Shown piece after piece: positions 3,465 to 12,616 of a DNA stretch of 32,000 bases. The stretch covers positions 90,001 through 122,000 of the forward strand of contig JASBSB010000003.1 in NCBI GenBank assembly GCA_030149205.1. Direction: 5' to 3'. How positions within the stretch are numbered: position 1 is the first letter of the stretch; every line of letters begins with the position of its first letter. The DNA is from Candidatus Heimdallarchaeota archaeon. GTDB lineage: Archaea > Asgardarchaeota > Heimdallarchaeia > Heimdallarchaeales > Kariarchaeaceae. Position numbers and translations under genes: made by a program. The notes below the pieces were generated by a model. It made no database searches. It saw nothing but the letters and a program-made list of their open reading frames with translations, and was not told the origin of the DNA.

Positions 3465-5603
3465 TTGCAACAAACTATACTTTTTATTGCAATGTTCATT
3501 GACTCTCATGTGAAATTATCAACGGAAGACATCTCCCATCTTTTCTATCCCAAGTCTTTGGCCATAGTTGGAATAAGCAGAAGAGAAAACTCGCTTGGAA
3601 AAAATCTATTTGATAACTTATTAGCTTCAGGATACAATGGGAGCATTTATCCAGTAAACCCTAAAATGGACGAATTTGAGGGGTACCCTGTCTTTCACAA
3701 ATTATCAGATATACAAGGGGAGGTAGAGCTTGTTGTTTCACTTGTCTCACGAAAATATGTTCTATCACTCGTTGAGGATTGCATTTCAAAGAATGTTAAA
3801 GCTTTGGTCATTATAACCTCAGGATTTGGTGAAATTGATGAAGAAGGAAAAATCATTGAAGACAGAATCCTTGCTCTAACTAATAAAAACAAGATCAGGG
3901 TAATTGGCCCTAATTCTATGGGGGTAAGAAGTGAACTTATGGATTTAAGTTTTAGCCCAGTCAGAGGAAAAGTTGGGGATATTGGGTTTATTTCTCAGTC
4001 AGGTGCTATTGGCGCTGTTACAATGAATCACACCAACCAGAAAGGTGTTGGTCTCTCTAAGTTTATCTCAATTGGGAACAAGAGAGATCTAGATGAGAAT
4101 AACTTGTTAGAGTACCTAGCAACAGATGACTCAACGAAGGTTGTGATGATGTATCTTGAATCCATAAAAGATGGAAATTTGTTAAGAGAACTGTTTAACT
4201 CTAACCCTTTGAGTAAACCAGTAATAGTTGTAAAAAGTGGAAGAACGTCTGAAGGATCCAGAGCTGCAAAATCACATACGGGAGCTGTTTCTGGTAGAGA
4301 TGATCTAATATCTACCATGTTTCATGATCTAAATATTATTCGGGTTAGAGGTATTAAAGAGATGGTTGATGTTGCCTATACATTTAAGAAATCATTACTT
4401 CCAAGTGGGGACAGAATTGGTATAATTTCCAATGCAGGAGGTCCAGGGACTCTAACAACTGATGAGGTTATTCAACGTGGGTTGCGCGTCCCTCTACTGA
4501 CTGGAGACCTGCAGAGAGAGCTCAGAGAAGTGCTACCTGATGAAGCAAGCACACAAAATCCAGTTGATGTTCTACCATCTGCAAGTCCTGAAACCTATAG
4601 GCATTGTATTGAAGTATTACAAAATTCTGATGAGGTAAACATAGTTATTGTTCTTCTACTCCCACCTGTTTTATACCCAATTCAGGACATGTTAAATACA
4701 ATTAACTTGATTAAAAAAACTAAACCAGTAATCGTGGTTGCTATGGGATGTGAAGGGACGATTTCTAATTATGTGTCTTATAGCTTTCCAATATTTTATA
4801 CTCCAGAAGAAGCTGCAATTGCTGTGGAGGCTTTATCTAGGTTTACATTGAATCAGAAGAAACTTACAACACGTAAATCTTCTTTTTCTGGAGGAATTCC
4901 AAATCATATGATTGAAATTGTGGAACGGATCTTAGTACAGAACAAAGGTATTGTGAAACAAGCTGATATCTCTGAGATTTTTTCTCAGTATAACATCCCT
5001 GAGGTTCCATCTCAAGTTGCGAGTAATGTTGATGAGATTACAAAAATTGCTGATCTTTTTGGGTATCCTGTGGTCTTGAAAGCTCAATCTGAGAACATTC
5101 TCCATAAATCAGATAAAGATGCAGTTAAGCTCAATATACAAAATGAGATTGAATTAGTAGAAGCATTTTCTGAATTAATACAGATTTATCGAAGTTTGAA
5201 TATCGATTCTAACGAAGTTATCATCCAGAAACAGATCAACACATATTTTGAACTGGGTGTGGGAGGAATAAGAGACCCAAATCTTGGCTCTTTTGTTCTT
5301 GTTGCTCATGGAGGGAAGTACATTGAGATCAACAATGATTCACTTTTACATTCTGCGCCACTCACTGTTTCAGAAGCCTTGGAAATGATTAGATCATTGA
5401 AGATTTATCCAAGAATTCGGGGTTATCGAGGAGATAGAGGAATGGATGAAACTACTATCGCCGAAATTTTGGTCAATCTCAGCCTTCTAATTTCAAATCA
5501 CAAAAATATAAAGGAGATCGATTTAAACCCAATAATAGGATTTGATAAAAATCTGTATTGTGTAGATAGCAGAATTATTTTATTTGATTCAATGGAATTA
5601 TAA
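3465..5603 (+). CDS. acdAB: ADP-forming acetate/acyl-CoA ligase, fused alpha (CoA-binding) and beta (ATP-grasp) subunits
   Basis: PKSLAIVGIS, IYPVNPK, IGPNSMG, SQSGA, SIGNKRD, AAKSHTGA (phospho-His), NAGGPG, NPVD, ILHKSD (beta His), EIDLNPI. The real start may be downstream of the TTG at 3465. Confidence 0.92.
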   Translation: MQQTILFIAMFIDSHVKLSTEDISHLFYPKSLAIVGISRRENSLGKNLFDNLLASGYNGSIYPVNPKMDEFEGYPVFHKLSDIQGEVELVVSLVSRKYVLSLVEDCISKNVKALVIITSGFGEIDEEGKIIEDRILALTNKNKIRVIGPNSMGVRSELMDLSFSPVRGKVGDIGFISQSGAIGAVTMNHTNQKGVGLSKFISIGNKRDLDENNLLEYLATDDSTKVVMMYLESIKDGNLLRELFNSNPLSKPVIVVKSGRTSEGSRAAKSHTGAVSGRDDLISTMFHDLNIIRVRGIKEMVDVAYTFKKSLLPSGDRIGIISNAGGPGTLTTDEVIQRGLRVPLLTGDLQRELREVLPDEASTQNPVDVLPSASPETYRHCIEVLQNSDEVNIVIVLLLPPVLYPIQDMLNTINLIKKTKPVIVVAMGCEGTISNYVSYSFPIFYTPEEAAIAVEALSRFTLNQKKLTTRKSSFSGGIPNHMIEIVERILVQNKGIVKQADISEIFSQYNIPEVPSQVASNVDEITKIADLFGYPVVLKAQSENILHKSDKDAVKLNIQNEIELVEAFSELIQIYRSLNIDSNEVIIQKQINTYFELGVGGIRDPNLGSFVLVAHGGKYIEINNDSLLHSAPLTVSEALEMIRSLKIYPRIRGYRGDRGMDETTIAEILVNLSLLISNHKNIKEIDLNPIIGFDKNLYCVDSRIILFDSMEL

Positions 5604-8216: not shown

Positions 8217-8453
8217 GTGAGTAATAGGGCACGGATGTTAGCTAGAGAAATCAAAGAGAAATTTGAACCAATAATAAGAACCTCAAACTATTCCAGCCTG
8301 TTAACAGATGCACTTGAAGTTGTTGAAAGTCAGGAGCAACCAACAAAGGATGATTTTTACTGGTTGCTTTATACCATCTCAACACTACTTGTGGAAAAGA
8401 TTCAACTGTTAGAAGACCAGCTTAAAAAATGTGAGAGCAATGAAAAAGATTGA
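8217..8453 (+). CDS. Small helical protein, probable PolB2-associated accessory protein (arCOG07300-like by position)
   Basis: 78 aa, amphipathic-helix and coiled-coil pattern (LLVEKIQLLEDQLKK); overlaps the start of polB2. Confidence 0.65.
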   Translation: MSNRARMLAREIKEKFEPIIRTSNYSSLLTDALEVVESQEQPTKDDFYWLLYTISTLLVEKIQLLEDQLKKCESNEKD

Positions 8454-10755
8454 GGGATGGATATACGCGATCTATTTTAAAGGAGAAAAAACCTTTGTCT
8501 GGGTCAAGACACAGGAACATAAGACAGTCATGCTTCGTCTAAATTACACCCCATTGATCTATGCGAAACATGACAAATCTCCTGATATCTACCATGAGGA
8601 CATTGTGGGAGAAACCACGGTTAAAAGAAGGATAAACAGCACAGACAAGAAGGTATATCCTGTTTTCAAGATAAGTACAAGGTCTCCAAAACATTTTCAG
8701 GGGGTAAGAAAATATCTGTTGGCCAACAATTTTGAGCTTTTTAACAGTGATTTGAATATGAGACAGAAGTTTTTCTTAGACACTGAATCTGCTCCATTCC
8801 TGTATTCCAGAATCACTGTAGATATTGATGAGACATTTACCATTGAAGTATTAGAGAAACCCGGAACGTCACTATCGAGATTACCTGACTTTTCATTTCT
8901 GAAGTTAACACCAAAAATTAAATCTCCACCAACAAGATTTCCAACAATGGATGATACACTTGAAGAGATGGAGCTTCAATTTAGCACCAGTCATGATACA
9001 GACCTGTTGATAGAAAGTATTGATACCTCCCCTCTAAATACGGCACTACGAATTAACGAAACACATCCATCACCAGCTTCAATTGAACATTTCAGGTTGA
9101 TCGGGACTGAACAGGATATTCTTGAGAGACTTTTTCAGTTGTTACAAGATTTGGACCCGGATTTTTTGTTAGTTAAAAATGGAGACAACTTTAACGTCCC
9201 CTTTCTCTATCACAGAGCAAAGGAAAATCAGTTGGAGGATTTTTATCTTGGAAGGATCCCCTCAAAAGTCTACAAAACAGGAAATGGGCAGAGTTTTGTG
9301 ACGTATGGGGCAATTCAGTACAAGTCTGCACCGCTGTATCTTCCCGGCAGAGTCTATATTGATGTGAAGAATTCATTTTTTGTCGGTGAATCTGGCTTGT
9401 GGGGGGTATTAGAGCTATCAAGAATGTCCGGTGTTCCTGCAGATCGTTGTGCCAGAAACTCTATAGGGACTGTGCTAACTGCCATTGAATGCCGTGTGGC
9501 AAATGAATCTCATCCACAGATACTCATACCCGAAGGGAAGGCAAGATCAGAGCAGTTCAAAGAATCATTGCAGCTTTTGTCAAGTGATAGTGGGGGACTC
9601 ACCTATCCTGCAACACCAGGTATCTACGATCAGGTTTGGGGAATTGATTTCACATCACTGTATCCCTCAATCATGATGAAACACAACATTGGAAACGAGA
9701 CTGTATTGTGTGATTGTTGCTCACAAACATCAGATATCACAGTCCCAGAAACCGCATATCACATCTGTCAAAAACAGACAGGGATTGTGCCAGAGGCAAT
9801 GAGAGTGATTCTCAGGAGACGGATGGAAAACAAGTTCCTTAAGCTTCAAAACATTCGACACAGACGTGCAATCAAAGGCAGTGATTCTGCACTTAAATGG
9901 ATATTGGTGGCATGTTTCGGATATTTAGGCTTCAAAAACTCTAGATGGGGAAGTATTGAATCACACCAAGCAGTCACTGCCTATGCAAGACATTACCTGA
10001 TTTTTGCCAAAACAATCTGTGAGAGGGAGGGCTATCGAGTTGTTGCTGGGCTAACTGATTCATTGTTCATTCAGGCGGTTGATCCGCAAAAAAACTCCAT
10101 TACAGAGGTCGAAAAGTTGGTTTATCTGATTTCAAAAGAGACTGGATTCTCAGTTTCTATTGATGGGTGCTTCAACTGGATTGTGTTTTGCCACATCAAA
10201 AATTTTTCAAATATAGCTGCCCTCACAAGATACTTTGGGGCATATGACAGTGGAAAGTATAAGATTCGTGGAATTGAAAGCAGAAAAAGGTCAACTGCAA
10301 AATTCATAGCTGAATTTCAGGAAGAGTTATTGACGCTGTTCCTACAGGCAAAAGACAAAAAACAGTTTATTCATCTCATACCCACAGCAGAAAAGATATT
10401 GGATCAATGGATCAAAGAGCTGTATGCGTGGAAGATACCTACCAAAAAGCTGTATGTGAGATACAGAAGTGGAAAAGGAGCGAGGGGGTACAAATTTAAA
10501 ACCTTACAGGCTCTTGCAGCAGAAAGGTACAACCTTTTGGGAAGAGTGATTGAGCCTGGGCAAAACATGAAATTCATAGTTGTAAACAATTTGAGCAAAT
10601 CAACACAAAGCATAAGGATTGAAGACGAGGAGATAAAAACCATCGACTTTCAATGGTATGAAAAACTGTTAAAAAATGCATATCTTGATCTTGTTGAGAC
10701 AGTGATAAATCAAGAGAAGTCATTTGTAATACAGTCAAGCCTACTAAATTTCTAA
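8431..10755 (+). CDS. polB2: Family B DNA polymerase, archaeal PolB2 clade, degenerate proofreading exonuclease
   Basis: Motif A DFTSLYPS, motif B KWILVACFGYLG, motif C AGLTDS (first Asp of DTDS lost), Cys-rich insert CDCC...VPETAYHIC, YKIRGIESR; ExoII reads NGDNFN rather than NxxxFD. Alternative ATG at 8440. Confidence 0.88.
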   Translation: MRAMKKIEGWIYAIYFKGEKTFVWVKTQEHKTVMLRLNYTPLIYAKHDKSPDIYHEDIVGETTVKRRINSTDKKVYPVFKISTRSPKHFQGVRKYLLANNFELFNSDLNMRQKFFLDTESAPFLYSRITVDIDETFTIEVLEKPGTSLSRLPDFSFLKLTPKIKSPPTRFPTMDDTLEEMELQFSTSHDTDLLIESIDTSPLNTALRINETHPSPASIEHFRLIGTEQDILERLFQLLQDLDPDFLLVKNGDNFNVPFLYHRAKENQLEDFYLGRIPSKVYKTGNGQSFVTYGAIQYKSAPLYLPGRVYIDVKNSFFVGESGLWGVLELSRMSGVPADRCARNSIGTVLTAIECRVANESHPQILIPEGKARSEQFKESLQLLSSDSGGLTYPATPGIYDQVWGIDFTSLYPSIMMKHNIGNETVLCDCCSQTSDITVPETAYHICQKQTGIVPEAMRVILRRRMENKFLKLQNIRHRRAIKGSDSALKWILVACFGYLGFKNSRWGSIESHQAVTAYARHYLIFAKTICEREGYRVVAGLTDSLFIQAVDPQKNSITEVEKLVYLISKETGFSVSIDGCFNWIVFCHIKNFSNIAALTRYFGAYDSGKYKIRGIESRKRSTAKFIAEFQEELLTLFLQAKDKKQFIHLIPTAEKILDQWIKELYAWKIPTKKLYVRYRSGKGARGYKFKTLQALAAERYNLLGRVIEPGQNMKFIVVNNLSKSTQSIRIEDEEIKTIDFQWYEKLLKNAYLDLVETVINQEKSFVIQSSLLNF

Positions 10756-11583: not shown

Positions 11584-12516
11584 ATGAGGTTTGAGGAGGA
11601 TTTTCGAAAAATCAACATATTGGTTTCAACCTTTTATCAGCTAATTAAACACGAAACTAACCTAAATGCTATTTTGAAGATTCTTTCAGCCCAATTACTA
11701 GATTATGAATTTCGCAGGGTTAATCAAACATTTATCTACCAAAGATACCGAACAAAAATCAGAGATAAAAAGATTAGCAGAGTTATTAATGGATACGCAG
11801 TGGGAATAAAGGTTCTTTATAGATTTTTTGAGGAAAATAAGAATCTCCCCCTCCAATTGGCCTATGTATGTAATTCTTGTGGAGAACTGTTTGAAACAGA
11901 CTATACAATTGAAGATGTCAAACTGCCTAGCTTGGAGGGTACAGGATTGCTTTTAACAATTGAATCAAAAAATTTTGTATTTGATCTAACAAAATACAAG
12001 AGAGCACCTACCTATTCGAATTTCCTGGGAAATGATGAATTGTTTCTATTGCTGCTCTCAAAATCAACAGTAATCATTTCCTATTACAGGAAGGATGATA
12101 GTGACGTTCACAATTTATTTAGGTTTAAGAATCTTGGTGAGACTAAGACGGTTGATCAGAATGTGAGCGGAGTGGGAGCTACAAATGTAAACAGGCAAGA
12201 AAAAACAATAATAAACCAGAAAAAAGTTGTAAAACCGTCTATATTTGAAGAGATCGAGGCCAAACAACAGATCTTAAAAGAAAAATTGTCTATACAGCTT
12301 AGAAATGGGAAATATGCTGGAGAAAGCTTTTATTCATTAATAGGATCTAAACCAAGGTATATTATTCAACTGCTGGAGGAGGAAGATCCAACAGAGGAAC
12401 TAAGTGATTATATTTCAGATGTAATAAAATTAGGTGTAGAAATTAATTTTGATGGTTTTCCAGAGCTTTTGGAGCTAAGAAGTCTTCTAAGAGAACATGG
12501 CTTGAGCGGGAATTGA
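11584..12516 (+). CDS. Hypothetical protein (single CxxC; C-terminal GKYAG..L...P.YI motif)
   Basis: 310-aa open frame; stop codon lies inside the antisense tRNA-His T-loop. Confidence 0.7.
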   Translation: MRFEEDFRKINILVSTFYQLIKHETNLNAILKILSAQLLDYEFRRVNQTFIYQRYRTKIRDKKISRVINGYAVGIKVLYRFFEENKNLPLQLAYVCNSCGELFETDYTIEDVKLPSLEGTGLLLTIESKNFVFDLTKYKRAPTYSNFLGNDELFLLLLSKSTVIISYYRKDDSDVHNLFRFKNLGETKTVDQNVSGVGATNVNRQEKTIINQKKVVKPSIFEEIEAKQQILKEKLSIQLRNGKYAGESFYSLIGSKPRYIIQLLEEEDPTEELSDYISDVIKLGVEINFDGFPELLELRSLLREHGLSGN

Positions 12517-12580
12517 ACCCACGACTAGAGAGATTTGCAGACTTCCACAATCTCTTATGTTACCCCTACACTATCAAGCC
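12498..12580 (-). tRNA. tRNA-His(GUG) with a 12-nt intron at canonical position 37/38
   Basis: Minus strand: GGCTTGA TA GTGT AGGGGTA ACAT A AGAGA TTGTGG [AAGTCTGCAAAT] C TCTCT AGTC GTGGG TTCAATT CCCGC TCAAGCC A. All four stems pair (7-bp acceptor, 4-bp D, 5-bp anticodon, 5-bp T); spliced loop UU-GUG-GC; CCA not encoded. Confidence 0.9.
12533..12544 (-). other. tRNA intron (12 nt) with a bulge-helix-loop splicing motif
   Basis: U32-U33-G34-U35 pairs with intron GCAA (4-bp central helix); the 3' splice site sits in a 3-nt bulge A-U/C38; the 5' site G36-G37/A is in a loop. Confidence 0.8.
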
Positions 12581-12606
12581 TATTAATATCAACAACACAA
12601 TGTAGA

Positions 12607-12616
12607 TTTAAATAAA
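12607..12616 (-). promoter_or_regulatory. TATA-like element upstream of tRNA-His
   Basis: TTTATTTAAA on the minus strand, 27-36 nt upstream of the tRNA 5' end. Confidence 0.35.

Follow-up and report, generated by a model that had tools for sequence, protein, structure and literature searches.

The window, a stretch of 32,000 nucleotides (nt) from the Candidatus Heimdallarchaeota archaeon assembly GCA_030149205.1 (contig JASBSB010000003.1, positions 90,001 to 122,000), carries a gene for tRNA-His(GUG) that has A73 as discriminator base and lacks an encoded G at position -1 (G-1). The gene matches Rfam RF00005 with 55 bits (E 2e-9), the ARAGORN call agrees, and its location and parts are given in Table 1. 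The acceptor stem opens with the pair G1-C72, G1 being position 12580. After removal of the intron the anticodon loop is UUGUGGC in an intact cloverleaf with a GUG anticodon, and positions 32-35 are able to pair with the intron, as read from the sequence. A sequence-only reading of this DNA had reported the A after the acceptor stem, the A before G1 and the spliced loop, and it is right in every detail. The genome contains two splicing-endonuclease genes and also encodes RNase P RNA and a class II CCA-adding enzyme.

Table 1. Features of the tRNA-His locus, in window coordinates.
Feature	Position	Strand	Remarks
tRNA-His(GUG) gene	12498..12580	-	83 nt including the intron, 71 nt after splicing; no encoded CCA; ARAGORN and Rfam RF00005
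Discriminator base A73	12498	-	directly after the 7-bp acceptor stem
Position -1, A and not G	12581	-	no pairing possible with A73
5' exon, positions 1-37	12545..12580	-	
Anticodon GUG	12546..12548	-	putative main identity element, by analogy (PMC4338351, PMC3064791)
Intron, 12 nt, at 37/38	12533..12544	-	relaxed bulge-helix-bulge; pairing read from sequence
3' exon, positions 38-73	12498..12532	-	
TATA-like hexamer	12607..12612	-	about 27-32 nt upstream of G1; weak candidate in an AT-rich spacer
Convergent open reading frame, 310 aa	11584..12516	+	no Pfam match; final 19 nt antisense to the tRNA 3' end

This gene is the only one for tRNA-His found in the host genome, which has 3.3 Mb in 12 contigs and is 93.5% complete. 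A census allowing T-loop introns gives 42 tRNA-like genes, among which there is neither a second tRNA-His, including the canonical C73/G-1 copy considered in the sequence-only reading, nor any tRNA with C73. A73 is present in at least 29 of the 42, so the discriminator cannot identify tRNA-His. The gene is 74% identical to a Thorarchaeia-type tRNA-His, which has G-1:C73, and is therefore probably native.

Distribution of the A73 state was surveyed across Asgard archaea with sequence patterns and a His-trained covariance model, since phylum-wide BLAST with the tRNA was too insensitive. A73 is found in 48 of the 49 readable genomes of this order and a sister order, namely 8 of family f1, 29 of f2, 2 of f4 and 9 of f6, which appears to be Gerdarchaeales, and the remaining genome, of f3, has U73. 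The base at -1 in these 48 genomes is T in 28, A in 17, C in 2 and G in 1, and is therefore unconstrained. Hermodarchaeia (family f16) have A73 in 11 genomes, with T-1 in all 10 that were read, and seven genomes of the Loki family f26 have A73 without G-1. Two of these are closed, and one is presumably that of the cultured Ca. Lokiarchaeum ossiferum. C73 is present in 16 genomes of Hodarchaeales (f5) and f28, with G-1 directly read in 15, and G-1:C73 in 47 genomes of eleven other Asgard families. One genome (G009) has C73, no encoded G-1 and a Thg1-like gene, which is the expected archaeal alternative and serves as an internal control. No tRNA-His was recovered by the survey for families f7, f11, f12, f15, f21, f22 and f24 or for the closed genome G248, and a loose pattern search of f6 and f8 gave chance matches only. 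The A73 trait is patchy but lineage-wide. The U73 tRNA-His of the f3 genome, G086, lies on contig C30 and has no G-1, as in Trypanosoma brucei, with a long-branch histidyl-tRNA synthetase (HisRS) gene 6 kb away.

A host genome of 93.5% completeness in 12 contigs leaves room for a pseudogene or an assembly error at this locus, with a canonical G-1:C73 copy in unassembled DNA. However, the cloverleaf is intact, the same state recurs in 47 relatives of the class, including the closed chromosome of Ca. Heimdallarchaeum endolithica from the same order, and no C73 tRNA-His was recovered from any genome of the A73 clade. Because the state is shared with these 47 genomes, A73 is not a product of chance or of assembly error, the latter having been raised in the sequence-only reading; the closed genomes effectively refute a hidden canonical copy, and the probability left to this explanation is negligible.

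Where archaea do not encode G-1, a Thg1-like protein is expected to supply it (PMC4338351), and the sequence-only reading had offered a Thg1 able to add G-1 opposite A73 as one of two inferences. Thg1 (PF04446) is found neither in the host genome nor in any of the 83 genomes of the class, closed ones included, nor in the 19 genomes of Hermodarchaeia or 14 genomes of the Loki family f26, and the same model matches in 14 of the 201 genomes of the phylum and in the control M. acetivorans. A profile of 12 Asgard Thg1-like proteins, searched unfiltered against the six frames of the host genome, detected no Thg1 (best E 0.1). With A at -1, no Thg1 detected and a sole tRNA-His, the host genome has no apparent source of G-1. 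Untemplated addition of G-1 as in eukaryotes, by a Thg1 diverged beyond detection or by an unrelated guanylyltransferase, would fit the gene, since A73 without an encoded G-1 is the eukaryotic pattern, and in incomplete genomes the absence of Thg1 is no proof. Set against this are the negative searches of the class and of the host, the finding that archaeal Thg1 requires C73 and adds U opposite A73 (PMC3245924), and the changes in HisRS described below, which point away from the use of G-1. We regard such addition as quite improbable, and the Thg1 inference of the sequence-only reading is unsupported.

A -1 nucleotide of any kind could also be retained, through an RNase P cut at -1 or a transcription start there, and HisRS would then read its phosphate and not its base. 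T, the commonest base at -1, could pair with A73, the HisRS of A. pernix accepts A-1 and C-1 (PMC9976931), in C. elegans an encoded G-1 faces A73 (PMC4338351), and the host HisRS has kept the equivalent of Arg122, one of the residues that hold G-1 in T. thermophilus HisRS (PMC4357726). But the host gene has A-1 opposite A73, all four bases occur at -1 across its kin, and T-1 is equally common in other host tRNAs (23 of the 42 tRNA-like genes), so that an arbitrary base at -1 would not set tRNA-His apart. This explanation is therefore unlikely.

The single hisS gene of the host lies on another contig (C4, 42467-43984, minus strand), and the nearest relatives of its product are proteins labelled Kariarchaeaceae and Heimdallarchaeota LC_2. 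HisRS of families f1, f2, f4 and f6 and of Hermodarchaeia form one clade (100/99 support), and membership in it predicted A73 for f6 ahead of the finding of those tRNAs, which then had it in 9 of 9 cases. The nearest HisRS outside the clade belong to four bacteria that keep a charged motif and have G-1:C73 in their tRNA-His. In the T. thermophilus HisRS complex the residues that bind G-1 are Arg115, Arg122 and Arg7 together with a GG pocket, and the insertion domain acts as a clamp on the acceptor stem (PMC4357726). In the host enzyme Arg115 of motif 2 is replaced by Thr and Arg7 by Asn, the GG is broken, and the equivalents of Arg122 and Gln117 are retained; the motif-2 Arg, mostly replaced by Thr, and the GG dipeptide are absent in 113 of 113 clade homologues. 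The insertion domain is also longer by about 58 residues in the clade (111-116 residues versus mostly 36-58 over the same span), and the added residues are modelled as helices with a predicted local distance difference test score (pLDDT) of 94-95. In the 505-aa host enzyme the insertion covers about residues 207-266. A fold search with the insertion domain returned clear matches only to other HisRS insertion domains (best Z 9.0, 103/161 aligned) and no outstanding match for the extra helices. An insert of equal length stands at a different site in one HisRS of family f8. Comparison with other HisRS, the Caulobacter sequence not included, revealed no insert in the anticodon-binding domain of the host enzyme. 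In Hermodarchaeia the tRNA-His gene has several introns and stands directly upstream of hisS, which suggests that tRNA-His and hisS can move as a pair. The two genes also lie near each other in G089, at a distance of about 1.5 kb.

Since the sole tRNA-His lacks G-1 and C73 and no G-adding enzyme was found, the host HisRS probably recognises it by a rule other than G-1:C73. We infer, with a probability of about 0.75, that RNase P cuts the tRNA at +1, that no G-1 is added and that HisRS charges it without G-1, mainly through the anticodon, in the manner of the Caulobacter and trypanosome systems and unlike the eukaryotic Thg1 system. The precursor would be spliced and cleaved by RNase P at +1 as usual, since A-1 and A73 form no eighth pair that could redirect the cut; the rule that relates the eighth pair to the RNase P cleavage site is established (PMC3064791). 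CCA would then be added and G-1 never, and as no G-adding enzyme was found the mature tRNA should start at G1. This tRNA would be charged by the divergent, G-1-independent HisRS, for which the GUG anticodon would be the chief determinant; the helical insertion peculiar to the clade, in the clamping domain, may assist. The anticodon is the obvious candidate determinant, because A73 is common to most host tRNAs and the acceptor pairs of tRNA-His vary across the clade, and it has been shown to be a determinant in Caulobacter, T. brucei and Acanthamoeba (PMC4338351, PMC3064791).

Several observations weigh against G-1-independent charging. HisRS of Thermoplasma likewise lacks the motif-2 Arg, Hodarchaeales HisRS lacks both the Arg and the GG yet has a G-1:C73 tRNA-His, and the G-1-independent HisRS of T. 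brucei retains the GG. As the Arg is missing from the first two of these enzymes too, the residue changes are suggestive of G-1 loss but not diagnostic of it, and the host enzyme keeps Arg122, a G-1 arginine, as well as Gln117. The match between A73 and the HisRS clade is imperfect: in family f26 A73 is accompanied by two other types of HisRS, so that A73 is found with at least three HisRS types in the Asgard archaea surveyed, and G086 with its U73 and long-branch HisRS stands outside the match. The counts are over related genomes, in which kin are not independent, and the host genome is incomplete. A dual-mode, tolerant HisRS that still prefers G-1 and charges the G-1-less tRNA adequately, as reported for C. 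elegans HisRS, would account for the retained Arg122 and Gln117 equivalents; dual recognition is known (PMC9976931), and the rise of A73 with at least three HisRS types makes the barrier seem low. On the other side, the cell offers no apparent substrate with G-1 that would sustain such a preference, and the pocket residues are changed clade-wide, which makes dual-mode recognition highly improbable. The second inference of the sequence-only reading, a putative G-1-independent HisRS, thus gains support from the distribution of A73 and from the HisRS changes, both read from sequence.

The TATA-like hexamer, if it is a promoter, would leave a leader of a few bases only; a sigma-70 promoter scan was also made, with a model not suited to archaea. 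The convergent open reading frame plays no part in the mechanism, and the idea that it constrains A73 was rejected, as A73 falls on a third codon position and is lineage-wide. A family B DNA polymerase-like gene (774 aa, window 8431-10755, plus strand) has modest Pfam scores. T-loop introns are frequent among the host tRNA genes and an encoded CCA is almost absent, which sets the host apart from most of its relatives in the order. The class II (bacterial/eukaryote-type) CCA-adding enzyme is encoded on contig C7 (80327-81940, minus strand), about 8 kb before the window, and no member of the archaeal class I family was found in the host genome; a class II enzyme in Heimdallarchaeia has already been reported (bioRxiv 10.64898/2026.05.29.728689). 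Two near-identical elements of about 253 nt on contig C2, near 372817 and near 3549 (minus strand), pass the tRNA-like filter without the appearance of a tRNA, and are possibly a repeated structured RNA.

In reviews, C73 is the state ascribed to archaea, and the change to A73 is dated to early eukaryotes (PMC3245924). Several Asgard lineages break this expectation and also that of a Thg1-like protein where G-1 is not encoded. A73 in archaea is not wholly unreported, because a 2026 reconstruction mentions in one line that archaeal tRNA-His may have A73 as well as C73, its accessible text naming no species (PMC13433404). The literature covered by a search on Asgard tRNA-His, Thg1 and HisRS identity contains no description of an archaeal system without G-1 and Thg1, or of this HisRS clade. 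Histidylation without G-1 is already known in alphaproteobacteria and some protists; if the proposed mechanism is true, it extends to the third domain and to at least three HisRS backgrounds. The ease with which a near-universal identity element is lost becomes testable, as closed genomes and probably cultured Loki strains carry the trait, and the tRNA-His/HisRS pair may, like that of Caulobacter, prove orthogonal in E. coli.

The A73 finding alone does not explain the eukaryotic system. Among solved structures, the host HisRS is nearest to the Thermoplasma and trypanosomal enzymes (221, 214 and 202 bits) versus 128 bits for the human one, while the top score of Hodarchaeales HisRS, an enzyme that groups with those of Woesearchaeota and Nanoarchaeota, is to human cytosolic HisRS (216 bits), and yet it pairs with a G-1:C73 tRNA. 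Approximately unbiased (AU) tests, made under LG+G4 on pruned sets with long-branch rows such as G086 left out, reject a grouping of the host clade with the animal cytosolic enzymes (p-AU 5e-78) and one with the protist and giant-virus-like enzymes sampled (p-AU 3.5e-5), the latter set having been picked after a tree was seen; the HisRS trees are without trypanosomal, Acanthamoeba, yeast and Caulobacter sequences. An ankyrin-fused HisRS (L444:3366-5504, and L445) lies beside a ubiquitin gene on intron-less metagenome contigs, which are probably of a giant virus, and groups with protist HisRS such as that of Amoebophrya. Two Loki genera (G165, G249) have a Hodarchaeales-type HisRS with an A73, G-1-less tRNA-His and no Thg1, and form a natural contrast pair for what removes G-1 dependence. 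The simplest reading is that G-1:C73 was lost repeatedly and convergently, and that the likeness to eukaryotes would not be inherited. It is conceivable that a tRNA-His with A73 and no G-1 was already in place in the archaeal host of eukaryotes and that Thg1 was recruited later to restore an untemplated G-1, because a tRNA can descend apart from its synthetase and because the HisRS that accompanies A73 in these two Loki genera comes from the animal-enzyme side of the tree; this would reverse the published view of A73 arising in early eukaryotes, but we hold it to be rather unlikely. The bearing on the origin of the eukaryotic tRNA-His system claimed in the sequence-only reading is weak, with the sister relation to animal cytosolic HisRS rejected and G-1:C73 kept in Hodarchaeales. 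Mature yeast and human tRNA-His bear G-1, and the label "eukaryote-type" given in that reading fits A73 and nothing beyond it.

With the canonical archaeal tRNA-His, which has an encoded G-1:C73 or C73 with a Thg1-like protein, the host tRNA shares the archaeal body and the 37/38 intron, and differs in having A73 with neither an encoded G-1 nor a Thg1-like protein. It resembles the eukaryotic Thg1/HARS system (PMC3245924) in A73 and the lack of G-1 in the gene, whereas no Thg1 is found here, a sister relation of the HisRS to the animal cytosolic enzymes is rejected and the mature tRNA is predicted to lack G-1. In T. brucei and Acanthamoeba castellanii (PMC4338351, PMC3561963) the motif-2 Arg is also absent and the 1-72 pair is Watson-Crick, and the host HisRS belongs to the same broad subfamily as the trypanosomal enzyme, which is among its top fold matches. 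T. brucei differs in its U73 and in the lack of the 58-residue insert, and the sampled protist group was rejected as sister in a tree that holds no trypanosomal sequences. Compared with Caulobacter crescentus and other Alphaproteobacteria (PMC3064791), the host is archaeal, the first pair is G1-C72 in place of the G1-U72 preferred by Caulobacter (PMC4338351), and the large insert lies in the insertion domain and not in the anticodon-binding domain, the Caulobacter HisRS being absent from the trees. Both systems have A73, no encoded G-1 and, presumably so in the host, no need of a G-adding enzyme, and in both the tRNA type is accompanied by a HisRS that carries inserts specific to its lineage.
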